The notes under the pieces are model-generated. The model did not search any database, was not told the origin of the DNA, and saw nothing but the letters and a program-made list of their open reading frames with translations. From NCBI GenBank assembly GCA_000004985.1, contig GG738850.1: a stretch of DNA of 64,000 bases; one strand, 5' to 3'. The position numbers and the translations under genes are program-made. The stretch is from Naegleria gruberi (taxonomy: Eukaryota). Shown here piece by piece: positions 6,901 through 53,100 of this stretch; the stretch's first letter is position 1; every line of letters begins with the position of its first letter.

Positions 6901-8976
6901 AAATGTTTCTTACTTGTGCACTTTGTTCTCTTGTTGGTCGAGAGCTGGATGGTGTTTGAGGAGGTTGGTAGACAGGTTTTTCAGGAGTCTTTACTTCAGG
7001 TAAGTCATTGTTAACCTCCTCAACCTGAACGCTTAAGCTTTGTCTTTCAAAAGCCATAACTTCCTCTTCATCAGTTGAAGAATTTGTTGATTTGACTTCG
7101 TCATCTTCATCATCTGATGAAATATCTGATAGAACTTCCTCTTCCTTTTTTCTTAATTGAGATTCTACCAATTCTTCCAAATTAGTTTCAGGAAGGAGAT
7201 GAACAAGAGGTTTCAAACCACCAACTTCTTCGATTCTCTTAAGATTCTCATCTTGGAGCATTAAATTCCACAATGTATGGGCAGCCTTCTTCTTAACATT
7301 ATTAACATCAACAATTGGTGATTCTGATGTCTCAATATCCTCCTTAACGGGATCAATGGATACAATAGAAACCAATGACTCGATACCACCTTCTTCACGG
7401 ATACTATTTGAAGATTCGTCATCAATAGCCATATTTGTAAGAATATTTGATGCTTTTTCAGCAATTTTCAATTCTTGAAGTGATTTGTAGCTCTTCAAAA
7501 ATTGAATAACAATAGGAATACCTCTCAATTCATAGATTTGCTTTCTATTTTCCTTTACAATTGACAAATTGTTTAACAATGTTAAAACGTTTTCCAAAGT
7601 TGTAAAATTATCACTTTCACTAATTGGATAAAGTTGTAACGAGTTGAGCAAAGATGGTATGAGATTTGAATTACTACCCATAATCAACGCATTCTCTTCA
7701 TCTAGAGAAAGTGAGGCCATGGCACCTGTCACTTTATAGACAACATCTCTATACATTTTCATATTCTTAGATGACAACTTGAGAGCAGTCAAAATAATAC
7801 TGCAAAGAATTTCTAAACCTTTCTGTTCTCTTATTTTGTCTCTAACTTCGCGACTATTTCCAGCCATATTCCATAGAATACCACTGGATGTTTTCACTTG
7901 TTCAATATCGTTAATTTTGATAGAACTTGCGGATTGTTTGATTTCTGTGAGTAATTTTTGGATCATTTCACTACTTTCGAATAAATTGTCATTGACAGGA
8001 GTATTATTAGTGGAAGGAGTATTGTTATTGCCAGACTTTTCATTTCTTGGAGATAAAATAAGTTTAGATGAAAGAATCTGAATGATATGTGAAGTATTTC
8101 TCTTCACATTCGCAAATTTAGAATTAGATAATATGATTAACTTTTCCACTAGGATCTTTGTGTCAATAGTATTTTGATTCAAATTTGGAATCATGACAAA
8201 TCTTTTAACATTTTCAATCAATAATAAATTCCACAAGCAGGCAGTCACACCTTCAATTATTTCCTGTGGGTGATCTTCTTCACTACCTGCATTGATTTTA
8301 CAAATCAATGAACAGAGGAAAGTAACTCCACCTAATTTCATAACCTGTTCACCAATTGTACTTTCTAAACAAAGAGATGAGAGTGCAATTAGTAAATTAT
8401 AAATAGTTGTTACATTCTGCTCGTCAACTAATCCACTAGAAACTAATTCTTCTAATGTCTTTATCATATTATTCAAATATTCATTGACTTTTCCTAATCC
8501 AACAAAGTATTCTCTATTCTTTTCATCAATAAATGTATTCAAAAAAGTACAAGTAATGTTTTCCAATACGGAAATATCTTCTTGATGTTCTGGCTTCATT
8601 CTTTCACACAAACTTTCAATGAGTGTGTGCTTTCTCATGACGGAACCACATTGCTCAATTGCAGAAATGTTACACAAGGTAGCAACAGCTCTCTTTCTTG
8701 TTGTTGCATCAGAACTTGCTATTAAATTTGTAATATTTGCAAATCCATTATGTTTTTCTAACTCCTTGACATCATTTTCTATAAATTTCAAATATTCGAT
8801 ACAAGAAGAATCAATAATATTCAACAACAAATTGGTGATTAATTATTACTATTTAATCATAATATCCACATACCTTCTTTAATTAATTTTTGAAACATGC
8901 CAGCAATCTGTGATCGTTTCTTATGATCATCCGAAGGTGTTGTACCTTCCAAGCTACACAACTTTTCAATATTCAT
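3971..8976 (-). CDS. Large TBC-domain (Rab GTPase-activating) protein, about 1,636 aa, with a PEVK-like low-complexity linker; 2 exons (8874..8976, 3971..8778)
   Basis: C-terminal TBC domain with RxxxW (RPRIW), Arg finger IxxDxxR (IEKDLKRT) and Gln finger YxQ (VSYSQSF). The long ORF has no in-frame ATG until far inside. An upstream exon (MNIEKLCSLEGTTPSDDHKKRSQIAGMFQKLIKE) joins in frame through a 95-nt intron (GTATGT donor at 8873, acceptor ...tttatag at 8780/8779). The middle 6280-6850 encodes a P/E/K/V-rich repetitive region. Confidence 0.75.
6280..6850 (-). repeat. Low-complexity coding repeat (PEVK-like: EPVKTP/KPE/EVVIP units) inside the TBC gene
   Basis: The translation is dominated by P, E, K and V in short degenerate repeats (KPTEEVEEVKIKEPEQVKPEPIVEKKPEIVKPIIKNVEPIPEPKKVVVETPKEQ...). 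Confidence 0.5.
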
Positions 8977-9516
8977 CTCCTATCCTAATCTAATGGAAAC
9001 TTGTCAAAGTTGCTTGGGTCAAAGAGAGAAAAAAAGATTTGCTTCGTTTTTTTTAAATGTCTACTTTCGTTCGGGCTATCTTGCGTCACTGGAAACCAAC
9101 AAACATCATCAAATGATTCGTAGTTGAGCAATATTTGTTTTTGGTAATTTAGGAGGAGTGGAAAGGAAATGGTAATTAACTTCGGTTTGTGTATCGTTTT
9201 CTGATGCAGGCTAGTACCACTCTTCATCGATCTATCACTGCAAGGCTATAAATGATATTTCACCAACGTTGGCAGAACATCAACACATATTAATATCACA
9301 TCTTTTATGAGTGCTGTAATCATCAGTGATGATTTTAAAAGAGTTGTGCGTTGATCTATGAAGGTAAATGAACAATTTTTACTTCCTTAATTTAATTGTG
9401 GTCCTATTATCAATGCAAATGTAACTTAATTGCTTGTAGGGGAATTCCTTGTTATTGTTGTTCAATTTTTATAAAAAATAAAATTTAAGAAAAATTATTT
9501 ATTGAATTTCAAAAAA

Positions 9517-12048
9517 ATGCCAAGCACCGTTGCTTCCATCGCTTCTGCTGGCGGAAAGTCATCAACAAACAATAACAATAATTTTAAAATGGATTTAATG
9601 GATCTTTTGGATAGGTCTCAACAATTGTTACCGGTTGTTGATAATTTTATTCAAAAAGATTTGGAATCTATTCATGAACAATCTAAAAAATTAATTCAAA
9701 AAACAGCAAGAGGAGATGTTCAATCAAAAGGAGATTATTTGCTTGCTGCTCACGGATTTGATGTGGAAAAGTATAGAAGAACAGTTAGTAGATTAGATCT
9801 TAAACAAGCCTTTGAACCTTTGGAACCTATCGGAGAAACAGATATTGAAGGTTATTTAAAACACGAACACGATATGATTCTTCTCTCTTCTGTAGAAGAA
9901 TCTAAAAGACATACTAGTAGTTGTTTTTATAAGAACTTTAATGATCACTTGGAGGATGATTGGAAATCAGCTAAAGAAAGCTTGATGAAAACTTTGAACT
10001 TACACAAAGCTTACCAAAGTCAACAATTTAGACCATCTCTTGGTTTGAATGACTCTGTCAGAAAACCATCTAAGTATTCATCATTCATTGTTTCATCAGG
10101 AAATTCTACACCATTCTCGTCTCCTATTAATCAAAATACAACTCTTATGGCTCCAACTCCAAAGAGAGGTAAGACTACAATGGACGAAAGAATGATTGCC
10201 TATAGCACTGTTGTTTATAATATTAACAAGACTATGAAGGCAGACCAAACTACTAGAATTATTGATCAATTCTCTGAAGCTGCCAAATATATTGAAGAAT
10301 CAGTAGCAAGGAAGAGAGAAGTTACAGAATGTTGGAGGTTATTGAGTTTCATGATCAATGAAAATAATGTTCATGGTGAAATCTCACAAAAGGACCTTTT
10401 ACGAGGAGCTAAAGAATATATGGAAACTTCCTATGTTCAATATATTAAAGATTTATTAGGTATTGAAGGAGAAGTTCCTGATAAATTGAAGCTCATTGAA
10501 CAATTTGTTGCTGAAACAACTAAGAATATTTTACCGGAACACCTCGGAGAATCTATTAATGGAAATTATATTTGGCCAGTATTATTTTATTGTTTAAGAT
10601 GTGGTTTCATAGAAGAAGCTCTTAGATTCACCAATGACCATATTGCCTATTTCTCTCAAGTCATTATTAGTGCTTTGGAAAATAAGAAGGAAGCTCAAAC
10701 TTCTAGCTCTTCAAGCTTGGAACAACAATTGCACGAATTATATAGAAAGATACCACCAAATAGATTATTCCAACATGCTGTATACTTGGTTTTGGGTAGA
10801 TGTGACGTGAAGAAGACCATTCCACAGATTTTCTCTAAAACTGAAGACTTTATGTGGTTGAAACTTTCCATAATAAGAGACGATTCAAATTATACATTAC
10901 AAGATTTACAAAAGATTGTTACATCACATGGACCAAAACATTTCTGTCCAAAGAAGAACTCTCTACTCTACTTTAAGCTTTTGTTATGTACTTTGCAATT
11001 TGAAAGAGCCATTCAATATCTCTGTAGTCGTCAAAGTGAAGGATATCACGTTGAAGCTGTTCACTTTGCATTCACCCTTTACTTCTACGATCTCCTTAAC
11101 GTTTCCGAAGACACTAGTGCTCCTCTTTTGACAGAGAAGGATGGTTGTCAACTTAACTTCCACTTCTTAATCAAAGATTACATAAGAATATTCGCCCATA
11201 CTGACCCATGTATTGCTGCTTCATACTTTTACATTTTCTATAAGAGAGATGAAAAGAAGAAATACTTCAAGTCTATCAAGGAATTGATAATTGAAGGAAA
11301 GGATGTATCTGTACTTTTGGGTCATGTAGATATTGATGGAAAATTGAAGAATGGATTTTTACACTACTTCTTAGATTCTTTTGATTTCCTGGAATTGGCC
11401 GAGTCATGTGCTCAATTATACAATGAAGCAGGTAGATATAGAGATTCAGTAGATATTTATTCAATGGCTTTATTATATAACTTTAGTTTAATGCCAGATC
11501 TTTCTGTTGATACACCAAATCGTTTGAAGAAATATATTCATTCTATTCTTGCCATTATGATTGATGAATTGAGTCAAGTATTGACCGGAGGTGAAAATAG
11601 AGAAGAAGTTAAGCAACTTGCCTCTAAAGTCTTTAAAAACTTTACTGATAACAAGATTCTTCAAATTATTGAACAAAGCAACAAGAAGAACTTTGAAACT
11701 TTCAAGATGCTTCTCAGTCTTACAAAAGTATTTGACAGCTTCTTGAATAGAAATTACGATCGTACTCTTGCAGATTTACAACAACTTCAAATTGTTCCAT
11801 TCAAAAAGCAAGAATTGGAGAGTATTTCATTAAGACAACTCGATAAGAAAATACAGAAGAAACTACCAGATATCTTATTTGTAGCTATGTGTACTCTTTG
11901 CCATTTACATTCTTCATCCAGATCTCACTCTCAAAATGAAATCAAGGATATGGCCTCGAATGTAATGTCATTTGCTGGTCTTAATGAAGAATTGGTTAGC
12001 AGTGATGTAACTACTCAACTCTTGCAATTCGTAAATAGAATGAAGTAA
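9517..12048 (+). CDS. NIC96: Nucleoporin Nup93/Nic96 family
   Basis: Single 844-aa exon; the first ATG is at 9517, and the track start at 9502 is a TTG. The all-alpha protein has an N-terminal coiled coil and the conserved YIWPVLFYCLRCG block, similar to the xWALxYYCxRCG motif I associate with Nup93. Length matches Nic96 (about 840 aa). Identification is from memory of the family, not from a search. Confidence 0.6.
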   Translation: MPSTVASIASAGGKSSTNNNNNFKMDLMDLLDRSQQLLPVVDNFIQKDLESIHEQSKKLIQKTARGDVQSKGDYLLAAHGFDVEKYRRTVSRLDLKQAFEPLEPIGETDIEGYLKHEHDMILLSSVEESKRHTSSCFYKNFNDHLEDDWKSAKESLMKTLNLHKAYQSQQFRPSLGLNDSVRKPSKYSSFIVSSGNSTPFSSPINQNTTLMAPTPKRGKTTMDERMIAYSTVVYNINKTMKADQTTRIIDQFSEAAKYIEESVARKREVTECWRLLSFMINENNVHGEISQKDLLRGAKEYMETSYVQYIKDLLGIEGEVPDKLKLIEQFVAETTKNILPEHLGESINGNYIWPVLFYCLRCGFIEEALRFTNDHIAYFSQVIISALENKKEAQTSSSSSLEQQLHELYRKIPPNRLFQHAVYLVLGRCDVKKTIPQIFSKTEDFMWLKLSIIRDDSNYTLQDLQKIVTSHGPKHFCPKKNSLLYFKLLLCTLQFERAIQYLCSRQSEGYHVEAVHFAFTLYFYDLLNVSEDTSAPLLTEKDGCQLNFHFLIKDYIRIFAHTDPCIAASYFYIFYKRDEKKKYFKSIKELIIEGKDVSVLLGHVDIDGKLKNGFLHYFLDSFDFLELAESCAQLYNEAGRYRDSVDIYSMALLYNFSLMPDLSVDTPNRLKKYIHSILAIMIDELSQVLTGGENREEVKQLASKVFKNFTDNKILQIIEQSNKKNFETFKMLLSLTKVFDSFLNRNYDRTLADLQQLQIVPFKKQELESISLRQLDKKIQKKLPDILFVAMCTLCHLHSSSRSHSQNEIKDMASNVMSFAGLNEELVSSDVTTQLLQFVNRMK

Positions 12049-12060
12049 AAATAATTTTAT

Positions 12061-13941
12061 TTACTTATCCTTTAATTTCTTTTGGTACAAAACATTGGAT
12101 GTCTCATCCAATGTTTCGTGTTGGTCTCGTTTTCTTTTTACATTTTCTGAATCTTCTTCAATGTTATTTACATCTTGATTGGAAATATTGTTAGTGTTGA
12201 TTGTGTAGTTTGGTGGTATTGCCAAGTAAGGGAATTGATTTGTGTAAAAATAATATTGTGGTATCATTTGTGGTGGATATGTAATAAAAGATGCTTGTGT
12301 TGTGTCTATTGAGCTATTACCTTGATTTGTAAGTGTGTTTGTTAACACACCTGATGGATTTGGTTGAGTAGTTGTGTATATTTGTTGTGATGGTTGTGTC
12401 AAGGCCCACTGAGCATACGGAAAAACAGTTGGGAATGTTGTAGCATTGGAAGTGGTAGTGTTTTGTGAAGTATTATAAATACCAGTTGTAATATTACTAG
12501 AAGTGGTTGAGGTAAGTGCATTTGGTGGAATGGCCATAGCAACCATTCCATTTGGTAAAACAGTTGTTATAGAAGAAGGTGGTGTAGATGTGTGAAGTTG
12601 ATGATGTGGGGAAAGTGTTGGTGTGTTTAAATTAAGTTGATTGAGTTGATGGTGTAGTGGAGATGGTGGTGCTGATGTATTATTTCCCATTATCATCATT
12701 AACTTGTTTTTGGAATATCCAATAGGTGATTTTGAAGGGCTTACTTTGATTTGTTTGACACTTCCTGCAATTGTACATCCACTTAATCTTAAAGCTCTCA
12801 AAGTACTTTGCTTATCTTCGAATTCAATAAAACAAAATCTTGTTTCGTATGATTCTGTATCTCCAGCCATAGCAATTCTGTGAATGGCTCCACATAATTC
12901 TTCAAAAAATGCTTTAACATGATCTTGTGATAGTTTTACGTCAATGCCACCCACATGAATTGTCCTCTCGACTAGGTCTCTATATTGTTTATCAATTAGT
13001 GACTTCTTAGGTGGTGTTTGAATGGCAGTTTTTGAGTGAGATACCTTGAGTTTAGATTTTCCCCAAAGTGAACCATTAACCATTATAGCCTTAAGTGACT
13101 GTTCAGTTGTGGCATATTCAATGAAAGCAAACTTGGTTTGTAGTTGTGTGTTAGAATTAGATGATTGTTGGTCATTATTACACAGTCTATAGTTAGTAAT
13201 ATCGCCATATACACTAAAGTAATCCAATAATTCATCTTCAGAAAATGAACTATCAATCCCAGAAATGTGAATTGTTCTACTTGCAGCAGAGTTAGCATCT
13301 ACAATGCTACTATTTGATATTGGAGAAAGTCCACCCAGATAAAGTGACGATGGGCTTGGTGGCAGATAATTGGGTGGGAGAGTGGAAGTTTCTGGTGATT
13401 CTACCTTCTTCTTTCTGATCGGATCTGTTTTCTTCTTGTTATTATTTTGAGGAGTAATTAGTGGGGGAAACACAACTGGCTTTTCAATAAGTGGAGTTAA
13501 ATTGCCATTATTACCATTGTTATTATTATTATTTGTGGAGGCAGAATTTTGTTTGCTATTAAAATCGTGTTTAGCCATAGAGATTTTCAAATTTTGTCCC
13601 ATAAACTCGGTACCATCTAAACTTAGGGATAATTTAGCTTGGTGATGATCTACAAATTCAACGAATGCAAACCTCTTAGCATAGGAAGGATCACCAGCTA
13701 ATTTAATATTTGTTACTTGACCATATTTTGAAAATAATAATTGAAGTGATTCTACGGTCGTATAACTAGAAATATTTCCAATATGTATTGTTCTTGATGT
13801 GTAATTATTTGATGATGATGATTGATTATTCGATTGGTGATGATTCTTTCTCGTGTGACTGCTGGAATTAAAAGATTTGTTATGATTCATTTTTTTGTGT
13901 AATTTCCCGCCAACAATTTCTTGAATTCTTTTACTGGGCAT
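12061..13941 (-). CDS. RNA-binding protein with three RRM domains and an N/Q/T/P-rich C-terminal low-complexity tail
   Basis: Three RRMs each begin RTIH(I/V)G(N/G)I with RNP1-like F(A/C)F(V/I)E(F/Y) (KRFAFVEF, TKFAFIEY, TRFCFIEF). 626 aa. Convergent with NIC96; the two stops are only 12 bp apart. Confidence 0.8.
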   Translation of the reverse strand: MPSKRIQEIVGGKLHKKMNHNKSFNSSSHTRKNHHQSNNQSSSSNNYTSRTIHIGNISSYTTVESLQLLFSKYGQVTNIKLAGDPSYAKRFAFVEFVDHHQAKLSLSLDGTEFMGQNLKISMAKHDFNSKQNSASTNNNNNNGNNGNLTPLIEKPVVFPPLITPQNNNKKKTDPIRKKKVESPETSTLPPNYLPPSPSSLYLGGLSPISNSSIVDANSAASRTIHISGIDSSFSEDELLDYFSVYGDITNYRLCNNDQQSSNSNTQLQTKFAFIEYATTEQSLKAIMVNGSLWGKSKLKVSHSKTAIQTPPKKSLIDKQYRDLVERTIHVGGIDVKLSQDHVKAFFEELCGAIHRIAMAGDTESYETRFCFIEFEDKQSTLRALRLSGCTIAGSVKQIKVSPSKSPIGYSKNKLMMIMGNNTSAPPSPLHHQLNQLNLNTPTLSPHHQLHTSTPPSSITTVLPNGMVAMAIPPNALTSTTSSNITTGIYNTSQNTTTSNATTFPTVFPYAQWALTQPSQQIYTTTQPNPSGVLTNTLTNQGNSSIDTTQASFITYPPQMIPQYYFYTNQFPYLAIPPNYTINTNNISNQDVNNIEEDSENVKRKRDQHETLDETSNVLYQKKLKDK

Positions 13942-14358
13942 TAATTGTTATCCGATTTCTTCATGTCATTTGTGACCGTACTAATCATCTTAAAGCAACT
14001 CTTTTCAATCAAATTTGATGCCTTGCATTGATTGTCGTCGATAAATTGGCAAAGTTCATTTGTAAACTGAAATCCATTTGAAAATTTGTAAAAGGTGAAC
14101 TCTTCTCAACACAAATTGTTCCCAATCTATGCATAATCAAAAAAGAACTCAATATTACGTAGCTGATCCTTATATATCACTGGAACAACTGTTCTTTGTT
14201 CTTGTGTGAATTATGGAATCAAAAATTCAAAACTTTATTTCTTGATATAATAATTTAAAAATGTAGGTACATGAGATAAAGTGATTCTCTCTGAGATGAA
14301 TCGAATAACATCATATTGATGAATAATACAATTTCCAGTAAATACAGAATATTAAAAA

Positions 14359-14772
14359 ATGAAAAATGAAAAACTCAAATCGTCATCGGATCAACAAGTT
14401 TTTAATTTATCAAAAATTGATTTAAATAACAAGGAATTGATTAAAGCTCTGGAGAGATTACCAACTACAGAACAATTCATGACAAATGTAAAGCAAAATA
14501 ATATTGAATTTATAATTCCGGATTTGAGAAGTATTCATAATGTGGTGAAGGAATTATTGCCCAAACCAAACAAGGGATTGTGGGAACCACAGTTTAATTT
14601 GGATCCATTCATATTGTCCTATATGGCTTTGTTATATCAGAATAGGGATAAGAAGAATCAACAAGAAAAGGATCAACAATCTGGTAAACAAGAAGAAGGA
14701 AACAATGTAGAGGCTAAGCCTTCGGAGGACAAGAAGGAAGATACTACACCACAGAGAATTTCAAAGTTGTAG
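14359..14772 (+). CDS. Hypothetical small protein (137 aa)
   Basis: Clean ORF with a basic/acidic C-terminal tail; no recognisable domain. Confidence 0.35.
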   Translation: MKNEKLKSSSDQQVFNLSKIDLNNKELIKALERLPTTEQFMTNVKQNNIEFIIPDLRSIHNVVKELLPKPNKGLWEPQFNLDPFILSYMALLYQNRDKKNQQEKDQQSGKQEEGNNVEAKPSEDKKEDTTPQRISKL

Positions 14773-15013
14773 AATAATAGGCTTTTAGGAACTATTCTAC
14801 AATTTGAAACAAGAATAGCATTGGTGTAATTAATTACATCAATTAATTGGAAGAGAAATTAGGTTGCATCAGAATATTTAACTGTTCGAAAAACTAGAAT
14901 ATCATGAGAGTGCTCCAATAATATTAGTGCAAATTCACATCAAATAATCATCACGATTATTTAATTGTTTAATAACAAATTCACTTTATATTATTTATTA
15001 AATAAATAAAAAA

Positions 15014-16397
15014 ATGTCATCAGAAACAAAAGTTGTATCGGATACATCAGTGCCACTCTATCAGGTCGATGATACCAATAAATTGCAATGCTCTACACCA
15101 ACATCATCAACTATTCACTTGTTCACCAAGTCAATATTAACATCAAATAAGCAACAAATAATTGGTGATTTAAATAGTGAAAGTACTACTCAACAACATC
15201 CTATTGAACCTGGTAATATTCATTGTAGTAGATTAGCTTCCGATTTAAATCAAGCCTCCACAGTATACTTTATTAACAAATCTAAATTATTCAAAATTAA
15301 ATATGAATTACCTAGTAGTGAAGTAAATGTATGGAAACCAACCAAGAATGCTAAATTACCTTATCCTTTACTTATTTCCGATATTGATGTTACTAAAATT
15401 TATCAATCCACATTAGATGTTAATTTCCAAGGTATTGAAATCGATAAGAATAGAATTGGTTTAACTGATGATATGGGAAATATTTATATTTTAAATAACA
15501 CATTTTCTACTAGTAATAATGAGGAAGATGATGAGGAAACTGATAACAGTTCAAAGAAGAGAAAAGTTGACGAAAAGAGTACTATTCAATGTGTTTACAA
15601 TAATATTGATACAATTAAATATCATGTTAAAGGTCACACTTCACTTAAATTCCATCCAACTAATGAAGCTGTTATTATTAAGAGTACTTTTGAAACTAAG
15701 AACGTTTCTATTTTTGATATCAATAACCAAAAGAGCATATTTTCTGTTAACACAATGCAAAATCCAACCAAATTGCATACCTTTGAAATTCCACAATCAA
15801 ATAATACATTATTAGCAATTGGAGAATATAACAATGTTTCAATTTGGGATTTCAGAACAAACAAACCAGTTAATAGACTGACTAGAACTAGAGGAATTGT
15901 TTATGATATGGATATTACAACCAATGTTAAATGTGGTAAAAATAATTCTAATGCCTTATTGGGTGTTATTGGAAGTGACAGAACTGTCTACATGTATGAC
16001 ACTATGAAATGGTCTCCAATTCACAAGTGGCAAAATTGTTTGAAATATGCTGTAAGTAGACAATCTTTTGAAAGATTCTTTAATCAATGTATTATTATAG
16101 CCATCTTACTTATCCTTCTCAAATATTAATAAGGAATTGTGCTACGTTGCTGGTTTTGATAATAGTGAATTCAAATGTGGTAATTTCGTTGATCAAAAAC
16201 AACAAAGAAAGGGTAGAGGTCATGGTCTCTATGCTGACAATAGATGGATTGGTATGACTAAACCGAATGCGCAAGATACTATCGTTGGTATTAGTATGAA
16301 TGGTTCTTTATATGTTATTGAACATCCACACCGAATGGCTCCAAACTTGAATGATTTAGTTCCTTCTACAGAAGCTCAAGATGTCATGGACGAATAA
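15014..16397 (+). CDS. Hypothetical protein with WD40-like repeats, 2 exons (15014..16051, 16134..16397), about 433 aa
   Basis: An ORF ending artificially inside a GTAAGT intron (16052..16133, 82 nt) continues in frame as ...KWQNCLKYA|ELCYVAGFDNSEFKCGNF.... WD-like strands include NVSIWDFRTNKPV and DRTVYMYDT. Contains the NLS-like DNSSKKRK cassette at 15544-15567. Confidence 0.6.
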
Positions 16398-16416
16398 ATC
16401 AAACTATTTATTTCTA

Positions 16417-16865
16417 TCAATCCAGCTTTTTCATTGATAAGTGGTTAAGCAATTCCTCAAAATACCTGGAAAGTTTTGAACACAACAAAGTTTCCGATAG
16501 TTCTTTTTCTTTGATAAAGCTCATCAATCTTTCAATTGTATCCAATGTATTGGTTATGTAAAAACCTATATCGTCAAAATAGTTCTCATGTGTTTCAAAG
16601 TTAGCATAAATTATCTCAAAATCTTCTAAATTAGAAAATAAATTAAAGATTTGTTTATATAATTCGCATGAATCACATCGGGTTTCCTTTTGCATTGTGT
16701 AGGCTTGCATCGTATGCAATATGAATAATTGTGCAATGTTATGAAAATCACTCGTTTAAGCAATAGTGTTTTGTCTTTGAAATCCTCTGCTAGCATTTTT
16801 CTATTATTAACAAGCACACAATTCCACCAATATTCAAATTTGGTGTTGCAGAGCAAACTGAACAA
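16417..16865 (-). CDS. Possible small gene (two overlapping ORFs, model unresolved)
   Basis: Minus-strand ORFs of 79 and 100 aa overlap in different frames; a short intron may join them but no consensus donor was found. Confidence 0.2.
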
Positions 16866-17023
16866 CCAGAATTATGAAGTGTAAGCCAGTAATAATATAT
16901 TGGAGTGAATACACAATATCATCTGTTGAAAGGCAATTTCATTAGACAGGGTGAGCTTGGGGTCATGCAAAGACTTTCCAATTCAGAAGAAAGTTGATAT
17001 TACTATTTATTTGTTTTGGTCTT

Positions 17024-17302
17024 CTATTTAAAATAATACATTGCAACTACCAAGAAAAACATACTAAGTAAGGTTACTTGTAATCTGTTATTTCCATCCA
17101 CAATTGCTTCTAATAACTTATCATTGCTTTCTAATAACTTATCATTGCTTTCTAATAACTTATCATTGCTTTCTAACAACTTGGCATTGCTTTCTAACAA
17201 TTTGGCATTGCCTTCTTCCATAGTTTCTTTAAGGCTTTGGATTTGGGCTCTAACTGAGTGGTTGGATGATCCTCCTGATGAACTGCTTGTGTAGCCTTCC
17301 AT
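17024..17302 (-). CDS. Tail-anchored coiled-coil mini-protein, paralog 1 (92 aa) with 5 KLLESN(A/D) heptads
   Basis: MEGYTSSSSGGSSNHSVRAQIQSLKETMEEGN + (AKLLESN)x5 + ...LLSMFFLVVAMYYFK. The single C-terminal TM segment ends 2 residues before the stop. Paralogous to 18815..19051 and 19416..19631, with conserved 5' and 3' flanks. Confidence 0.6.
   Translation of the reverse strand: MEGYTSSSSGGSSNHSVRAQIQSLKETMEEGNAKLLESNAKLLESNDKLLESNDKLLESNDKLLEAIVDGNNRLQVTLLSMFFLVVAMYYFK
17105..17215 (-). repeat. 21-bp tandem repeat x5 (cttatcattgctttctaataa / cttggcattgctttctaacaa) encoding KLLESN[DA] heptads
   Basis: Direct inspection of 17101-17220; unit length 21 = one heptad. The paralogs carry 2 copies and about 1 copy respectively. 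Confidence 0.8.
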
Positions 17303-18814
17303 TTTTTTAAATTAAATATTATTTAAAAATAGAGAAACGCTCAAAACTTACCTTCTTCTTAAACACAATAAACGATGAGGAGTTGTAATGAAAAACTTAC
17401 ATCTTCCGAAAACATATCACCATTAGCGTGAAATGCATCAAGGTGAGAAGAGGAGCCCATTGTTGCAGAAGTACTATCACTTCCAGTAGATGATGTATTT
17501 TGGTTGTTTTTTGTTGTTTTGTTGGGGAAGGTTGTTCCTCAATAACTCACATTTAAGCAAAAAAATTCCACATCTAATGAAACACATGATGAAGCATGGA
17601 TGTTCCAACGACGCTATTGAGCAACTTTACAAAATCCACATCCAATTAAAACATGTTGTTTGTCTTCCTTACAATCGCTGCGAGATCCCTTAATATAACG
17701 CATCTGGTATCCTCACTGTTTTCACTTATCAAAAACGATTTTACAAGTCATCCACATAATCAAGGCAATACAGCCAACCTTAAAGACTCGGGAGGAATGG
17801 TAGCATAAATAATACTGCTAATACAAAGAAATGCTCAATGATCCTATCATTGTGTAATGACACAAAAATATGAAACGCAAGACTTAAACCCAACATATTT
17901 AGCTATAGCTTCCTTTTAGTGCTTTAGAAACGCGGTTTGGACATTCTCGCTTTCATAGGTTTCTTAAGGACAAAACATTAAGCTGACACCTTGACAAGAC
18001 TTCTCTTTCTTGATGGTATTTTTTTTGGACTTTCTTTTAAATATTAATTTTTACAATAAATATTTGTATCCTTAATATCCTTGACAGGAGCCAAAGGGCA
18101 AATATTTTGAGATGATAAATTGCCATGCCATTAAATATTATTTAACTTCGAGCTTAAGGATTGTAGTTGTTATCTGTGCATAATAGGAGACCGAACACTG
18201 CTATTATTTTGATTTGAAGAATTATTAATATTAAAAAAAACCTCATCAGCTGATTGGAAAAAACCAATATTCTTTCTCATTAATAAGAATACTCACTCAA
18301 AAAATTCAAAGGGGAAACGATGTCATAAGAGTTATTTTTAGTTTTTAAACTTTGTTCATATTAAATACTCGGTGAAAACAAAAGGAAGAAAAGTAAGGCA
18401 AGCTAAATTACTGAATGTGAGTATTACATATCTTAGAGTTTTACCAAGTGTCGTTTTCCAAATTCTACCAAGTTTTACACCCACTCTTCTAAAATTTGAT
18501 TAAAGACTCAGGGAAAACGATTCAAGTGATGGATTATGGTATTTGTGAAACGTACCCTAACTTCCGATAAAAGTGAGCCAATTCTATTGAAGGAAAGATA
18601 AGATACACTTGAGTTTGATTCATGAGAAGCTTTTAAGAAGGTTGATGAGGTAAATGAAACTAGTTTTGTTTCCAACGCACACTATTTTAGCCCACTCACC
18701 AAAAGGTTGGTAATTTCACCGAAACTATGGTTTTCACTACAAACTATTTTTAAGGCAGAAATGTTATCTCTAAAGATTAGAAGAATATCTATATTTATTC
18801 ACTTTTTTGGCCTT

Positions 18815-19051
18815 CTATTTAAAATAATACATTGTAATCACCAAGGAAAACATACTAAGTAAGGCTGCTAGTACTCTGTTATTCCCATCCTTAATTGCTT
18901 CTAATAACTTATCATTGCTTTCTAACAACTTGGCATTGCCTTCTAACAACTTAGTATTGCCTTCTTCCATAGTTTCTTTAAGGCTTTGGATTTGGGCTCT
19001 AACTGAGTGGTTGGATGATCCTCCTGATGAACTGCTTGCACTGTCTACCAT
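18815..19051 (-). CDS. Tail-anchored coiled-coil mini-protein, paralog 2 (78 aa)
   Basis: MVDSASSSSGGSSNHSVRAQIQSLKETMEEGNTKLLEGNAKLLESNDKLLEAIKDGNNRVLAALLSMFSLVITMYYFK. About 85% identical to paralog 1 outside the repeat. Confidence 0.6.
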   Translation of the reverse strand: MVDSASSSSGGSSNHSVRAQIQSLKETMEEGNTKLLEGNAKLLESNDKLLEAIKDGNNRVLAALLSMFSLVITMYYFK

Positions 19052-19415
19052 TTTTTATTAACTATTGTTTAAAAATAGAGAAATGCTCAAAACTAACCTC
19101 GTGGTCTAGTCCACGCACCTTAAATTGTAATGTAGGCTTAATTATTCAGTAATATTAGGTTCATCCATTGAAATATAATATTGAATGCAGTGACAAACCA
19201 TTTGTTTCGCACACATAATTTGCTAATTAACCTGAACAGAAACCCATATCTTAATCTATTATTTGAATACCTGAAATTTGCTCCGTTGTGATAGAAAACA
19301 ATTCAACTGATCCCTTATAGTTTCAATTTTAAATAAATCATTAACGATTTTTTAGTAAGAAAGGTTAGAACAAAAATTGGAAGAATATATTTATTCAGTT
19401 TGTTGGTTTGGCCTT

Positions 19416-19631
19416 CTATTTGAAAAAATACATTGCAACCACCAAGGAAAACATACTAAGGAAGGTTACTTGTAATCTGTTATTTCCTTCCACAATTGCT
19501 TCTAATAACTTATCATTGCTTTCTAGCAACTTAGTATTGCCTTCTTTCATAGTTTCTTTAAGGCTTTGGATTTGGGTTCTAACTGAGTGGTTGGATGATC
19601 TTCTTGATGAACTGCTTGTGTAGCCTTCCAT
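19416..19631 (-). CDS. Tail-anchored coiled-coil mini-protein, paralog 3 (71 aa)
   Basis: MEGYTSSSSRRSSNHSVRTQIQSLKETMKEGNTKLLESNDKLLEAIVEGNNRLQVTFLSMFSLVVAMYFFK. The 3' flank ttggccttctattt(a/g)aaa(t/a)aatacattg is conserved in all three copies. Confidence 0.6.
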   Translation of the reverse strand: MEGYTSSSSRRSSNHSVRTQIQSLKETMKEGNTKLLESNDKLLEAIVEGNNRLQVTFLSMFSLVVAMYFFK

Positions 19632-20039
19632 TTTTTATTTTAAATTGCTGTTCGTGATGTTCAGCTTGTAACTTTACAACTTATTTTGCCAAATACTTAC
19701 AAGTAATATCGGAGTTAGAGAAGCTCAATCTTAACACTGTTTTAATACAATTAGTAATGAAGGAGCCAAATACTTTGAAATGAAACAATTTACAAAACTT
19801 TATATCTCCAATGATATTCCTTAATTGAACCAATTCTTTACAAGTGGATGATGTAAATCAATTTAATTAATACTTTATTGTAAACTAACACCACTAACCT
19901 TTTGTTAAATTTCCTCTCTATTTGGTTCGACAGTATCAACTTTTCGGACCTCAATCACTGACACAAATCGAAACTCTACTGCACACAACTAAATTATCCG
20001 CTCGAATGTTATTGATAGCAAGAAAAAAAAACTTTTCAC

Positions 20040-34113: not shown

Positions 34114-36994
34114 ATGGGCTGTGGCACATTTTCCAAAAATTTGGTAGAGGACAGGCACACCCCAATAATTAGTAACAAAAAGTCATCATCAACGGCGGAT
34201 ATTCCACCAACAACAACAACAAATAATCCTTCAGAAACATCAGGTTCAGTCGATATATCGAATAGAAGAGTGTCCAAACAATCTTCAGTGAGAGCAAGTA
34301 AGGCTTCTACACTAGCCGAACAACTTTCTTCTCAGCAACAACATCAATCACACCAAGAAGAAGAATATTCTTTCGCGGACCACCAAGAAGAGGCTTATGC
34401 TTTTATTCCGTGGCCAGAAGATATAATGATCAGTCTCGCTACTAAGGGATCTAAATTTGAATTAAGAGAAGTATCACTTCTTCTACCATCGGATGAATTA
34501 AATCAAAAACCTCTTCTTAAATATGTAAAGGATAAGAGAAATAATTGTCAACAAAATATAATAGATTGCATGTATACAATCATGAGTAGGGTTCTAAACT
34601 TTGGAACCAATTTACCTTTTCCTGTAAATACTGAAAACCAATTTGATCTTGCCGTTGATTTCATTGCTAATGGCTGTCCAATTGGAAAACAACAATTTAC
34701 CTTCTTTTCTCATAAAGAAATCCTCCTACACAGAAGTGCGTTCTTCAAAGGAGAGTTATCAAAAGATAACGGAGCAGTAGATTCACTAAAAAGAACCCTT
34801 AGTAGTGCTCATGACCTTAGAAAATCGATGGTAAAGGCAGAATTCGCTGATAGAAGAAACACAGCAGGTGATCCATCACAGCTAAAACGAACGTCGAGTC
34901 ATATAACATCTCAAGGTCCTAGATCGAGTCTACCTCCAATGCCCTTACAAAAACGACCTTTTAATACAACAAGCTCTTCCAACCTCCTTCAGGGTATGGG
35001 TGATCTAAGCAAATCTGGATCTTCATCTTCGATAACAAGCGTTGAAGAGGGAGGTAATTCAGAGAAGGAAGAATTATTCTCCTCACAAGGTAGTTTATCA
35101 ACACTTTTACTAACAGAAGATTCTAGGAAAAAAGGACAACGAAAGCCAAACAACCAAAATTTAGCAGTCTCCATTTCTAAGCAAACAAAAGCAAATCTAC
35201 AGCCAAGTAGGTTAGAGGTTGCAATATCTCCTCTTGTAAAAGATCCAGAGATTTTGTTGTTAGTTTTTGAAAATATTTACTCTGGCTATTTCCGACCTGA
35301 ATACGTTCAAAAGATGAAATCTTTGGATATTGAAAGTTTAATTCAGATATTAGCACTAGGTTACCAATTTAAAGTTCATTCATTGAGAGCAGTTTCAAAA
35401 AGTTTAATCAGTCAGTTTTTGTGTACCCACAAGGATAAGTACACATCTTTGGAGGAGCTCATCAATGGAACTTGCAAGAATATAACTGTTGAGGATATTC
35501 AAAAAAACAATATGAGTATAGTTTTAGAATTGAAGAAAATTTTCATGGACTCTAAGAGTAAGTAATTAATCTAGAGAATTTCTAACATGCATTTTAATAG
35601 AATCATTACAAGAAAATTTCATTTCTCTATCACAAGAAAAAAGAACATTCCTTAAGGATCTAGATTTTATGTTTGTACATAGTAATATGAAGAAGAACCA
35701 TATGGACTTCAGTGACATGAAGTTAACAATACAGGTTGAAGAAAAAAAGGAAGAAGAGGAAAAAGAAGATGAATCCCCCAAGAGGTCGTCGTCTTTCAGG
35801 GATACTTATGAAGAAGATGTTCAACCACTAATAAGTCAAAGAAAGAAGAGGACGAGCAAACTTCAGGACAGTGTCGATAAGAGTCAAACTAAGAAAATAT
35901 TTATTCACAACTTTATACTGAAATCAAGAACAGATATTACAAATCCTGAAATATTTAATCTATACAGCACAAATGTTGATGTTGTGAAGACTTTTATTCA
36001 TTACCTGTATACAGATACTATACACAGTGATACATACAATGTGAGTAAGAAGAAGATAATACCTCTTGCTGCTTTGTTCAAGATTGATAGACTGAAATAT
36101 GAATGTTTGGCTCATGCTATTTTCAATTTATCGGATGAAAACATTCTCAGGAAGTTTAAGAAAGCTCAAGATGCTAAGGAGACTGTTCTTGCCCAAGCAA
36201 TTTTCTACACAATGTCACACATGTATCCTAAACTAGTCCAAAAGAACTATGAGGAAGGAACGCCAGAATATAATATTCTCTTCTCAATAGATGAAAAGCT
36301 TAGGCATTTATATCAGAGAATGAGTGGGCAATTCCTTATTAGAAGAAGAATATTTACAGAAAGTAGGTTGGCGGAGATAATACCGAGAGCTGATGTTTCT
36401 AAACTTTCTCCTTCTCAAAAATCTCCAAACCACAAGATTAATGTTCAAATATGTGGCCTTCACGGCTCTGGTCTTAGTACCTTCGTAAATCAAGCCAAAC
36501 CTCTCATCTCTGAACTTCATTCATTTGAAGGAGTTGACAATATTGAACTCAATATTTCTTCCATGTACATATCAGACAGACCATTTACTGCAAATTCTTT
36601 AAAGTCAACAGACGGTGTAATTTTTATATTTTCCATTGATTCAGTAGATTCCTACCAAACAATGAGAGCTAAGTATGACGACTTTAGATTCTATTCCAAA
36701 GTTCCAGCTGTAATAATAGGAAACAAATGCGATTTGATACTTTGTAATTTTGAAACAGAGGACAAGATTGTTGATTCAGACAGAATAGTGAAAGAAGTAA
36801 CTGAAGATATGGCTTGCCCATATCTTGAAATGTCTTCTAAAAATTCAAGTGATGTTAAAAGATCGCTTGAGGAATGCATAAGAGAAGTGTTGTTTTATAG
36901 ACATATCACTTCAAAGATACCAAGTCATTTCTTAAATACTATTGCTAGGGATCAACAAGGATTGGAATCATCAAGTAACATTTCAGAGGAATAA
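34114..36994 (+). CDS. N-myristoylatable BTB - BTB - Ras-like GTPase fusion protein, modelled as 2 exons (34114..35557, 35601..36994); alternatively two adjacent genes
   Basis: First ORF: MGCGTF (Gly2/Cys3), BTB elements FTFFSHKEILLHRSAFFKGEL ... LLLVFENIYSGYF ... LALGYQFKVHSLRAVSKSL. Its TAA stop (35563-65) overlaps a GTAAGT donor (35558-63); a branch-like ttctaac follows, then an AG at 35599/600 that rejoins the second ORF in frame (43-nt intron). Second part: acidic linker, second BTB (FIHNFILKS...FIHYLYTDTI...LAALFKIDRLKYECL), then a small-GTPase domain (GLHGSGLST degenerate P-loop, IGNKCDL = NKxD). Only about 100 bp separate the two ORFs, too little for an independent promoter. Confidence 0.6.
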
Positions 36995-39101: not shown

Positions 39102-41500
39102 TTACACATCTGGGATTGTTTGATACAAGGCATCTATTTCGTTTTTGAAAACTTCTTTCAACTTTGGTCGGATAATCTTCATGGTTGGTGTTGTAACTCC
39201 GTATTGTTCAAATTCCTTTGGCAAAAGTTTAAGGCCACGAATAATTTCAAAACCTTTAAGCTTGGCTTGCTTGGCGACTGCGACAATATCAGCAAGTACT
39301 GCCTTAACAATATCTGGATCTTCACACAACTCTTCAATCTTATCAGCCAATTGTTCCTTACCATTATCTTTGGCATATTGTTGCAAAACTGAAATATTAG
39401 CAACAGCAAAACCTATAACACAGCTCTTGAATGAATCTCCATAAACCCAAATGCCAGTAATAAACTTAGATTGACTTAATTTTTGTTCAATATTTTCAGC
39501 AGCAATATATTCACCTTGACTCAATTTGAAAATATTCTTCTTTCTGTCAATAATTGAAATTGTACCATTTTCATTTTCCTTTCCAATGTCACCTGTATGG
39601 AACCATCCTTCAGCATCCCAAGCTTCCTTAGTCTTTTCTTCATCCTTATAATATCCCATTGAGACTGATGGACCACGTACACAAATTTCACCAGACTTAT
39701 TTAGTTCCATACTATAGTTCATTTCAGGCACATCATCCAATTTAACTTCAACTGATGGGACAACACAACCAATATGACTTTCAGAATAGTCATAAGGAAG
39801 TTGAATCAATGCAGCAGCACATGTTTCCTGAAAATTAGTTAGATTAAACAACATTCACAAAAACTTACAGTAAGACCATAACCTTGGACCAAACTACATC
39901 CGAAAATGACTCTCATGTATTGTTGAACTTCAGGACGGATTGGTGCACCACCTGAAAGACAAAATCTGATACGTCCACCAAAGTTCTTTCTGATAACACC
40001 CAAAACAACATCTGAGATTGGAGTAGATTTACCAGAGAGCATACCTTCTTCCTTAGATTTAATGGCCTTACTAATGGCCCATTGCTTTAATTTACCTTCC
40101 TTTGAGATCTTTTCTTTAATACCATCATATAATTTATCAAGAACTCTTGGTACAGCAGGGAAAGCAGTTGGTTTCAAAGCAATCAAATCATCCTTCAAAT
40201 TCTTAATATTACCTTCCCAGAAACCAATACTAGCACCTGCTTGCAAAAAGACAATTTCAACCATACGCTCCAAAATGTGTGCAAGTGGTAAATATGAAAC
40301 AACTTTCAAAAAATGTATCAATTCCAAAATCTACTATACTTACCACAATCATTTTCATTCAAATCAATAATATTGTGGGCAATACCAGCACTAGCAGCAA
40401 TAAAGTTCAAATGGGTAATGACAACACCCTTTGGCATACCAGTGGTTCCTGATGTGTAATTCAAACAAGCAATACTTTGAGGAGTTGGTGGAACATCTTC
40501 AATTGGGTTTTGTTTACCGAGTTCCATAACTTCATTTAAGGTGTATGACTTGATGTTAATCTTTTCCAAAGTTGATTTTTGTTCTTCAGTGATAGCATCA
40601 AAACAGATGACTGATTTAAGGTATTCAGCCTTTGGTGCCAATTTGATGACACTACCAAGGGTTTCTCCAGAACAACAAACTGAAACAACTTCACCATGAT
40701 TCATAATGAAATTTGATGATTCTTCTCCGAGAGTGTCATAGAGAGCAAGACTGACAAGAGATTGCTTATTGCAAGCCTCAACTGAAATTTGCCATTCTCT
40801 TCTATTCTTACTGTAAATAGCAATATGTTGGTTTGGGGAAATACCAATATGTCTCAAACCACAAGCAAGATTTCTGGACATATCATCAACTTCTTTAAAT
40901 GTAATGAATTCATATTCCATTAATAATTTAGATGAATCTGTTGGGTCTCTCATTCTTCTACCCAAGCAAGGTCTATCTGCGAATTTTTCAACACACTTTT
41001 TGAATGAATCATACAATGTGGAAATGTCCTCATATTTCTTAATAATCAAGGCATCTTGGTGGCCATTCTTTCTCTTGATACGAGGATCAGATCCACCAGA
41101 GACAGTTTGATTAGCTACTGGAGGATATGATTTAGATGAAGATGTAGTTGTTTTAATTCCCTTCAATTCCGGAACAAGGAATAAAGAAGCATCGGTCTTT
41201 GGTTCACTCTTTGGAACAGCCTCTACTGGTGGTTCCTCTTCCTTTGGTGGGGTTGTAATTTCTTCAACAAAATTATTAATATCCTTGTTTTCTTGATCTT
41301 TTTTTCTTTTAACCTTTTTCAATTATTAACAATAAAAACTCACCTTCAACTGTTGAAATATTTTCCTCTGTTTTCAAAGTTTCTGTGGTTGCCACTTCTT
41401 CAGTAGTAGTGGTACTACTTTCAATCTTTTCTTCTTGTTGCTTTTGTTCTTGTTCCTCCGTAACAGCAAGGGAATCGGCAAATGCTGAAAAATCACTCAT
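39102..41500 (-). CDS. Long-chain acyl-CoA synthetase (fatty-acid CoA ligase, AMP-binding superfamily), 4 exons: 41344..41500, 40344..41297, 39869..40236, 39102..39827 (about 734 aa)
   Basis: AMP-binding motif I YTSGTTGMPKGVVITH. ACSL linker CGASIGFWEGNIKNLKDDLIALKPTAFPAVPRVL is split by a 107-nt intron and re-formed in frame. Motif II GYGLT|ETCAA is re-formed across a 41-nt intron (GTAAGT...tctaactaattttcag). C-terminal GEICVRGPSV..GY..WFHTGDIG...IIDRKKNIFKLSQGEYIA. The first intron (42 or 48 nt) has two equally in-frame acceptors. Confidence 0.88.
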
Positions 41501-50146: not shown

Positions 50147-53100
50147 ATGGAGCGAACATTATCATCGACAAATTGGAATAGAAAATTTAATTGTTCCGAA
50201 CAACGACAACGATCATCAATTCATATTGTAAATTATTTAATAGTGATAATTATTAGTTTTATTCTCATTAGTCATGGAATTAATTCAGTGATGGGAAAGA
50301 TTAGATATTTTGATACAAATAGTTTATTTGAACAAAATTATGTTCACTCAACGACATCAACAAGTGCTTCTGATGATGATGATACGGATTATTCGGCCCT
50401 ATTTTCAGATACATCACCACAACTTTCACTATTTAATATTCACAAGATTATTTCAGCGAGATTTGTCTTTTCAAAATTTAACGAGTTTATTTATTTACCA
50501 TCGAAATCTAATTCTACAATGGTGTTTTACTTTTTGACAGTTCTTAAAGATGGATTTGTCAAAATTGATTGTGATGGTGTTATTAACACAAAGGATTCAA
50601 CAATTTCAAGTACACTTGTAGTTGGAAAATATAATTTGGAAGAAGAAAAAGTTGTTTGGGCTGCCAAGCAAGAAATTCAATACTTTTTCGGTAAACCATT
50701 TGCATACGTAACAGAAAAAGATGAGATTATTATCAGTTGTAATATCAAAGATGATCAAGGTATTTTCTCAAAAAAGTTCTTTTCAGTGAATGGTGTATCA
50801 ACAAAACAACCTTCATTCGTCAACAAGAATACTGCACGAGAAGTCAACATTGTCATGGAAGGTAGTATTGATCGATTTTCTACTATTGGTAATCAAAGTG
50901 AAGGGTTTTTAGTGTTTGGTGCTAAAAATTTGAGAAAAACAAACTCTCTTTACGATTCTAAAAAGGAGACTTTGCATTTAGAAACATCTGTTATGGCTTC
51001 TTTTTATGCTGATGGATCACCTAGATGGAATGTGAAATTAGGTATGTGTTTAGTTTCATTTTTATATTCATAATACTGATCCAAGTTTATGGAAATATTG
51101 AGTTTTTTGAGCTTCTTTCAGTTAAAGTAGTTAGTTTATCAAATAACACTATACCCATTGTTGCTTGCTTTAATTATCTTGGAAGTGGCAGCCTAAAAAC
51201 TTTTGAGAGCCTTCAGGATACCTTTGTAGCACAAACAGATTCAGGATTCGAAAATACTAATTTCAGACTTTTTTCAAAGTACTTTTCAGCTGGAGTTTAT
51301 AGTATTTCTGAAACAGGGGTGTTTTCAGAACTATTTTCATTAAGAGCTTATCCTACAGGTGATTCAACAAGTGCCAACATTCTTGTTAAAGGGTTTTACT
51401 ATGACAAGGACAAGAAAATCTACATTTTATTAATTTATATGAAAGGATATCTTACTTTTTCTAAAACCAGTCATGGAGGATCCAATATGGAAGGAAATAT
51501 AATTTACACATCTACCAACAGAACTGGAGATTATATTCTTGTGAAATATACTGAGGGAGGTACTCCAGTATGCGTTCCTACATCATACATTGGTGATGAT
51601 CCTATTGTAACTACAAATTATTTTATCAATAAGAGAGTTTCTATTGAATCCTACAATAGTTCAAAGCTGCATTTGGAAGTGATAGATATTGAAACAGGAA
51701 CTATCAGGGATAATTTGGCAATTGACATTCAATCCGAAGACCCGTATGGCATTCAGTACGAATTATTTTATGAAAAGAGAAGATATTTAATTGTAAGAGG
51801 AACAACTCAAAATAATGGAACAATATTAATTAATAACAAGTTTTATGTAAAGCCATCAAAGGGTCAGTCAGAATTGGTATTTGTTCTGTACTTGAATACT
51901 CACCCAGAATATGGTAAACGTGAATTGGAATGTGATCAACAACTCAAATGCAGAGCGGTAAGTTTGAATTTTCAATCATTTTTAATTGTTCGATTAGAAT
52001 GCAAATGACAAGATTTGTCAAGCACATGGTATTTGTAATATGGAACAAAAATGTGAATGTGATGAATTCTATATGGGAGATTTTTGTGAAACATATTATA
52101 GAAATACTTTTATAGCAGTTATGGCAACTGTAGGAGTCATATTGATTACTCTGACAGGAAGTGTTTTAACAGGCATCGGAATGTATGCTTACAGAACAAT
52201 AGCTAAACGTCTAAAGCGTTTGCAGAGCAAGGTTAAGGCTGAACAAGAATTGGAACAAAAATTATTGGAATTTGTTGGACTTAATATTAACGAAACTACG
52301 TTTAATTTCAAAACATGGCTCATTCCATTCGAACAATTAACAATTGACAGAGAAATTGCTAGCTCTAATGGAAGAACAATTTTCCAAGGCTCATGGAAAG
52401 GAACATCTGTTGCCATTAAGAAGGTTAGACTAGAAGATTCCTTTGATTACCATGAGGATACTAAGGAATTGAACCTGGATAAAACATTGGAAAGAGAAGC
52501 AGCCATTTTGAGTAGAGTTAGACATCCTAATATTTTGAGATTCTGGGGTTTGGCATTTACTCAAACTGAACAATTTTTAGTGAGTGAGTTATTTACCTTG
52601 AGTATGGATCAAATTATTGATGAGGCAAAAAGAGGAGATCTCTACATTCCAATCCTTTGTAAACTTCAAATTCTACACGATATTGCATGTTCAATGACCT
52701 ATTTACATGAATTTGATCCTCCAATTCTTCACAGAAATTTAAAACCATCCAATATTATGGTAAGTTTTCAGGAAATTTTATTGATTTTCCTTACAATTTC
52801 AAGTTGAGTGAAGACGTCAGATATGGAAAAATACTTTCTGCTGTAAAGCCAAAAATCGCTGACTTTGGATTGTCTACACACTTGAGAGAAGATAATGTTC
52901 TTACGATGCAAATCGGTAATGTTCTATACTCAGATCCTCTCATCTTTAAGGGTGAAAGATATTCTGAAAAGTGTGATGTTTACAGTTTCTCAATGATAAT
53001 GTACGAAATGTTTTTTGAAACAGAACCATACAAAACTTCAGATAAGGTTGGAGAAATTAAGGAAAATTATAATCAATACTCAGTTCTTCCAAACAAGATA

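Follow-up and report, generated by a model that had tools for sequence, protein, structure and literature searches.

The 64,000-nt stretch of Naegleria gruberi DNA analyzed here (contig GG738850.1 of assembly GCA_000004985.1; referred to as the window) contains the gene NAEGRDRAFT_46403, deposited as XP_002681393.1 / D2V3J4, whose reading frame is interrupted at positions 35558-35600. An earlier sequence-only reading had proposed that regulated retention of this interruption acts as a switch between an adaptor-only and an adaptor-GTPase form of the protein. According to our analysis, positions 35558-35600 are very probably an ordinary short U2-type intron, most likely constitutively spliced, in a gene for a 945-aa protein with the order MGCG motif, BTB domain, BTB domain and Ras-like domain. 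The stop codon next to the 5' splice site, on which the proposed switch depends, is what chance predicts and is not conserved between species. As a routine intron of a known kind, the element is of low significance in itself.

A short intron joins two long reading frames into one gene

Judged by sequence comparison, the 43-nt spliceosomal intron is real and joins two long open reading frames (ORFs) into one BTB-GTPase fusion gene. The anatomy described in the sequence-only reading, a 43-nt intron with GTAAGT, TTCTAAC and an AG at 35599/35600, was confirmed in the letters of the window (Table 1), and the joining of the BTB and GTPase parts by splicing is borne out by the orthologues. Exon 1 closes with ...AAG A at position 35557, giving the junction text A/GTAAGTAA (the slash marks the splice site). 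Splicing would join 35557 to 35601 and thereby regain a frame that is conserved across Heterolobosea: the A at 35557 and the AA at 35601-35602 form the codon for Lys482, after which the frame is open to the TAA at 36992-36994. The spliced product, encoded by 34114-35557 plus 35601-36994, is 945 aa long and not 925 aa, the length given before. Removal of the intron restores the junction peptide DSKK/SLQENFI, which is invariant in three full-length orthologues, and the residues K481, K482 and S483 are invariant across the splice junction in the orthologue alignment.

Table 1. Features of the BTB-GTPase gene and its intron (window coordinates)
Feature	Position	Strand	Description
Exon 1	34114-35557	+	Start codon, MGCG motif, split first BTB, helical extension; ends at the first base of the Lys482 codon
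Public-model donor GTAGGT (A/GTAGGT)	35207-35212	+	Makes a 394-nt 'intron', 35207-35600
Intron	35558-35600	+	43 nt, phase 1, GT-AG, sole intron of the gene; letters GTAAGTAATTAATCTAGAGAATTTCTAACATGCATTTTAATAG
5' splice site GTAAGT, consensus	35558-35563	+	Sequence reading; identical hexamer in all four orthologous introns
In-frame TAA	35563-35565	+	T is intron position +6, AA are +7/+8; only the first base lies within GTAAGT
Branch-point-like TTCTAAC	35580-35586	+	Putative branch A at 35585; distance to the 3' end of the intron 15 nt
3' splice site TAG	35598-35600	+	AG at 35599/35600; acceptor also used by the public N. gruberi model
Exon 2	35601-36994	+	Linker helix, second BTB (acidic insert), helical region, Ras-like GTPase; TAA at 36992-36994

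Donor and acceptor, branch motif, restoration of the frame and an orthologous intron position all agree with a U2-type GT-AG intron. The composite signal GTAAGT..TCTAAC..YAG occurs twice in the window compared with an expectation of 0.03, and both occurrences are introns that are confirmed by orthologues. The other one, a verified short intron at 39828-39868 on the minus strand, carries TCTAAC at a similar distance from its acceptor, and in the orthologous intron of Naegleria lovaniensis the sequence TTTTAAC is found at the position aligned to TTCTAAC.

In comparison to ordinary short Naegleria introns, for example the one in N. lovaniensis C9374_001891, we found no substantial difference. They have in common the GTAAGT donor, a branch motif of the CTAAC type about 15 nt from YAG and a length of 41-53 nt; site and phase are the same in four genomes of the Naegleria clade, and removal of the intron regains the conserved frame. 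Introns of N. gruberi average 203 bp (PMC8296547); with 43 nt the present one is much shorter, but it matches other short introns of the window (41 nt and a 44-nt candidate).

The intron is found in Naegleria and is younger than the gene fusion

That the intron is real follows from the end-to-end alignment of the orthologues, the intron of N. lovaniensis, the introns of two further genomes and the common gene order. The 945-aa product aligns over its entire length with N. lovaniensis C9374_001891 (945 aa, 61-63% identity) and with a protein of Willaertia magna (876 aa, 43% identity). In N. lovaniensis the intron is annotated: the gene is exactly 50 nt longer than its coding sequence, and the sole placement that yields the deposited protein is a GTAAGT...CAG intron that interrupts the identical codon in the identical phase. 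At this site, and also in phase 1, an N. fowleri-like genome (L004/L005) has an intron of 53 nt, and a metagenomic relative on a contig from the Joint Genome Institute (JGI; L006) one of 41 nt. Prokaryote-style ORF callers split the gene at the intron in both of these genomes.

Outside Naegleria the gene is uninterrupted. The W. magna gene is a single intronless ORF of 2,631 nt in the genome assembly. On a genomic contig of 72.5 kb, the distant relative P0011 encodes a protein of identical architecture in one uninterrupted ORF; thus, the BTB-BTB-GTPase fusion is older than the intron. A further relative, P0158, likewise consists of one ORF and adjoins GCN5L1 as in Naegleria, but it counts for less because its Logan contig may be a transcript. 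On this distribution the intron is not ancestral to the fusion and, among the genomes compared, is limited to the Naegleria clade.

Synteny connects the loci of N. gruberi, N. lovaniensis, W. magna, the N. fowleri-like genome and contig L006. The gene for ribosomal protein S3a lies immediately upstream in all of them, and Med12 follows farther upstream in N. lovaniensis and W. magna. In the window, the neighboring ORFs are identical to proteins of N. gruberi strain NEG-M, a Med12-like protein (XP_002681391), ribosomal protein S3a (XP_002681392) and GCN5L1 (XP_002681525), and the G+C content of 33% agrees with that of N. gruberi (PMC8296547). No match came from two metagenome scans for further orthologous loci, nor from querying a protein word index with the junction region.

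The gene encodes a protein with two BTB domains and a C-terminal Ras-like domain

The protein starts with M1-G2-C3, which is invariant in seven relatives. An MGC start is a typical motif for N-myristoylation and palmitoylation, and the N-terminal MGCG is probably such a signal. The part encoded upstream of the intron had been described as a BTB protein of 483 aa, and this description needs a qualification: a search of exon 1 with the Pfam BTB profile gave no match at E <= 1, but after deletion of a low-complexity insert of ~140 aa a profile of six sequences matched the BTB domain of NPR1 with E = 8.5e-6. The match of the same profile to SPOP/ZBTB17 is weak (E = 0.16-0.7). Based on the match to NPR1, the 483-aa part probably contains a BTB domain that is split by the insert. 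The alignment with NPR1 ends at about residue 465, and the intron is located ~15 residues past the region formed by the first BTB and its helical extension. An AlphaFold2 (AF2) model of the N. lovaniensis orthologue, calculated from an alignment of four rows, has a mean predicted local distance difference test (pLDDT) score of 40, a quality insufficient for judging the BTB fold or for searching with the structure. The pLDDT falls after residue 478, which gives a weak hint of a boundary.

Exon 2 encodes the second BTB domain, recognized by Pfam at residues 599-653; the match is weak here and reaches 1e-17 in the relatives P0011 and P0158. The Pfam Ras profile (PF00071) matches residues 811-911 with E = 4.7e-11 and 43 bits at a cut-off of 21.6, covering only positions 65-160 of the 162 profile positions, and a profile of the family matches H-Ras and Rab1 at ~1e-14. 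In the alignment with H-Ras (36371-36991, plus strand), the P-loop (G1) reads GLHGSGLS, with Leu in place of the Lys (Val in N. lovaniensis and W. magna), and DxxG (G3) is absent at the position aligned to H-Ras. The NKCD of G4 is kept, and the distant relative P0011 also keeps the GK. With this set of motifs, the C-terminal domain may be a pseudo-GTPase or an atypical GTPase.

The order MGC(G) motif, split BTB, BTB and C-terminal Ras-like domain was observed in Naegleria and Willaertia as well as in other protists, represented by a JGI sample and a Logan run. The loci of the family include 34114-36994 on the plus strand of the window, L010 (1001-3328) and L011 (273-3110), and the gene on L011 adjoins GCN5L1 as in Naegleria. 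Literature searches found no paper that names a family of the type MGC(G)-BTB-BTB-Ras.

The closest comparison is the RhoBTB family, which is described with the order GTPase-BTB-BTB (PMC8305917). RhoBTB and Dictyostelium RacA resemble the Naegleria protein in the fusion of an atypical small GTPase to two BTB domains, the first of which is split by an insert, and in a size of about twice that of a small GTPase or more (PMC8305917). In contrast to RhoBTB, the order is reversed in the Naegleria protein (BTB1-BTB2-GTPase), the N-terminus carries the MGCG acylation motif, and the GTPase domain scores as Ras and not as Rho in Pfam, with the Rho insert not searched for. The two architectures appear analogous at most, and we do not place the protein in the RhoBTB family.

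The stop codon beside the splice site is expected by chance

Without splicing, the ORF 34114-35565 ends at the TAA 35563-35565, and the statement that retention terminates translation after 483 aa is correct. The stop codon had been placed inside the 5' splice site, which is true of its T, the last base of GTAAGT, but not of the two A's, which lie outside the hexamer. It had also been called the only stop codon of the upstream ORF; this applies trivially to any ORF, and the frame contains a further stop, TAG at 35572-35574, three codons past the TAA. Such a stop would bar the synthesis of the full-length protein from unspliced RNA, as stops or frameshifts do in almost any unspliced intron.

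How often this arrangement arises by chance was estimated with simulated 43-nt phase-1 introns that start with GTAAGT and have the base composition of the window (33% G+C). A stop codon at +6 to +8 was present in 22% of them and at least one in-frame stop in 67%. In the window itself, AA, AG or GA comes next at 6 of 33 GTAAGT sites. The TAA is thus a side effect of two A's following the GTAAGT consensus in a genome with 67% A+T.

The comparison between species gave the same picture. Past the split codon, read-through of the unspliced RNA yields SK* in N. gruberi (43-nt intron, 2 codons), SKYNLFKQFNI* in the N. fowleri-like genome (53 nt, 11 codons) and SKFNIPWFNDLIL* in the metagenomic species (41 nt, 13 codons), where the TAG of the 3' splice site itself serves as the stop. 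The 50-nt intron of N. lovaniensis does not contain an in-frame stop; here, 46 codons of intron read-through and then frameshifted exon 2 would be added. None of the four intron lengths is a multiple of 3. Neither the frame of the retained form nor its stop is conserved across the species compared, and the stop beside the donor is specific for N. gruberi. The position of the stop agrees with chance expectation, and a stop just within an unspliced intron is the rule and not a design feature.

Regulated retention of the intron is improbable

The splice signals GTAAGT, TCTAAC and YAG are at full consensus and not weak. For the RNA around the intron we calculated a minimum free energy of -11.6 kcal/mol, compared with a mean of -11.5 kcal/mol after shuffling (z = -0.03). 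A hairpin formed by the intron and exon 2 was considered as a candidate and rejected, its fold being no better than that of the shuffled sequences. The stop of a retained transcript lies 1,427 nt upstream of the normal stop, and N. gruberi has UPF1, SMG1 and SMG9 (PMC5709506; PMC6173133). Judging by the way in which nonsense-mediated decay (NMD) operates in other organisms, a retained transcript would be a likely substrate of it, and unspliced RNA would be expected to be degraded by this pathway and not to be translated into a stable 483-aa protein.

Several points weigh against a plain, constitutively spliced intron. To begin with, constitutive splicing is itself something that we infer, and some retention is likely as noise because alternative splicing in protists, N. 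gruberi included, most commonly takes the form of intron retention (PMC6142364). More specifically, the interior of the intron is ~80% identical between N. gruberi (35564-35597) and N. lovaniensis (L003, 11439-11479), with 15 of the 18 positions from the donor to the branch motif being the same. The score of this alignment was attained by none of 5000 to 20,000 shuffles, and the four-fold degenerate sites of the gene are just 40% identical between the two species. In five other species pairs, which include the N. fowleri-like and the metagenomic introns, the similarity of the introns is not significant (p 0.10-0.65), and the baseline intron at 39828-39868 has no similarity to its 79-nt counterpart in N. 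lovaniensis (p 0.83).

The shared interior could be a constrained, maybe regulatory, element or a coincidence. Because of this similarity alone, we leave a small probability on regulated splicing. In its general form, such a reading assumes a Naegleria-specific intron at the boundary between BTB1 and BTB2-GTPase, in which the constrained element TTAA[T/A]CT[A/G]GAGAATTT[C/T]TAAC, which N. gruberi and N. lovaniensis have in common in spite of saturated synonymous sites, modulates splicing and either tunes the protein level or releases a membrane-anchored BTB-only form. We consider this improbable. That the intron arose from a tandemly duplicated start of exon 2, with which it has GAGAATTT in common, was rejected as well (local alignment, p 0.11-0.68 in four species).

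Among the specific forms of regulation, the one that survives best is regulated but unproductive retention, in which the unspliced RNA is degraded or kept in the nucleus and the level of a single 945-aa protein is tuned. In many eukaryotes, retention is tied to down-regulation of expression via NMD or nuclear retention, and this is its usual role in non-animal eukaryotes (PMC6142364); the NMD factors are present, and the unexpected similarity of the interiors in N. gruberi and N. lovaniensis would fit. However, the N. fowleri-like intron does not share this similarity, even though N. lovaniensis is closer to N. fowleri than to N. gruberi, and Willaertia manages without the intron. The probability of this form of regulation is low.

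Less probable still is the switch as proposed in the sequence-only reading, with regulated retention giving rise to a stable and functional 483-aa membrane-anchored BTB-only protein beside the 945-aa form. The location of the intron near a domain boundary, as suggested by the end of the NPR1 alignment (~465) and the low-confidence AF2 model, is in line with it, as are the MGCG motif and BTB1 that the truncated product would keep and the conserved interior in N. gruberi and N. lovaniensis. On the other hand, the short form has no conserved C-terminus, with 46 junk residues added in N. lovaniensis, and the intronless relatives Willaertia and P0011 are unable to make a short form at all. The consensus splice signals and the lack of RNA structure also argue against a switch, as does the premature stop, which precedes the normal one by 1.4 kb in a species equipped with the NMD machinery. 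The exact 483-aa and 945-aa sequences are both absent from a collection of 15 billion proteins.

Functional intron-retention switches provide a useful comparison. A stop near a domain boundary and an intact N-terminal module in the retained form are common to them and the N. gruberi gene. In contrast to such switches, the retained C-terminus is unconserved here, the splice sites are strong, the intron is absent from sister genera, and the premature stop is found where NMD is expected. If true, the switch would be a rare documented case of isoform control at the protein level by intron retention in a heterolobosean; nothing that we found favors it, and constitutive splicing of an ordinary intron is the preferred explanation.

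One public contig contains the N. gruberi intron in unspliced form (Logan contig L007). It originates from run ERR1078381 (PRJEB11402), which is a metagenome, and the contigs span intergenic DNA; L007 is therefore genomic DNA and not a transcript. Neither the locus tag nor the run accession turned up in literature searches. The contigs L007, L008 and L009 of this run are 99.8% identical to the N. gruberi region at the DNA level (3 mismatches in 1,527 nt), indicating that a close N. gruberi strain was present in the sample.

The public gene model probably uses a wrong donor

The deposited protein XP_002681393.1 has 828 aa and results from an 'intron' that shares the acceptor at 35600 with the 945-aa model and starts at 35207 (Table 1). 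If this model were right, or if 35207 were a real alternative 5' site, the protein would be without the second half of BTB1. In its favor, the deposited protein has exactly this structure, which is in frame (phase 1) and makes use of the donor GTAGGT. However, the 'intron' removes 117 codons within the first BTB, some of the best conserved in the protein, and LLLVFENIYSGYFRP and LALGYQFKV would be lost with them. The donor GT at 35207 is found in N. gruberi only, since the Ser codon, AGT in this species, reads TCA in both N. lovaniensis and the N. fowleri-like genome, and the segment is coding in the N. lovaniensis annotation and in the intronless W. magna gene. We therefore regard use of this donor as very unlikely. 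The public donor is probably a mis-prediction, and the 945-aa model is better supported. The practical value of the analysis lies in this correction of the gene model: 117 conserved residues of the first BTB are most likely missing from the deposited protein.

Two adjacent genes for proteins of 483 and 441 aa with no splicing between them, the way in which prokaryote-style ORF callers split the locus elsewhere (P0008/P0009/P0010), can practically be dismissed, as SLQENFISLSQEKRTFLKDLDF, the 24 residues encoded from the acceptor up to the first ATG of the second ORF, is conserved and directly continues the exon-1 part in the intronless orthologue, and the splice signals are canonical.

Other splice sites and short introns in the window

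A candidate in-frame alternative acceptor, AAG at 35610-35612 on the plus strand, lies 12 nt past the real one, and its use would drop four residues around SLQE. It is kept in N. lovaniensis because it sits within conserved codons.

To obtain baseline introns, the window was scanned ab initio with pairing across species. The scan was noisy and left 39828-39868 on the minus strand as the single clean baseline. This second short intron (41 nt, GTAAGT...TCTAAC...CAG, phase 0) is located in a gene for an AMP-binding, acyl-CoA-synthetase-like protein, and its counterpart in N. lovaniensis is 79 nt long and unrelated in sequence. A scan for joined ORFs, the only basis in this case, additionally yielded a candidate 44-nt phase-1 intron at 51042-51085 on the plus strand (GTATGT...AAG), which links two ORFs of ~300 codons each.

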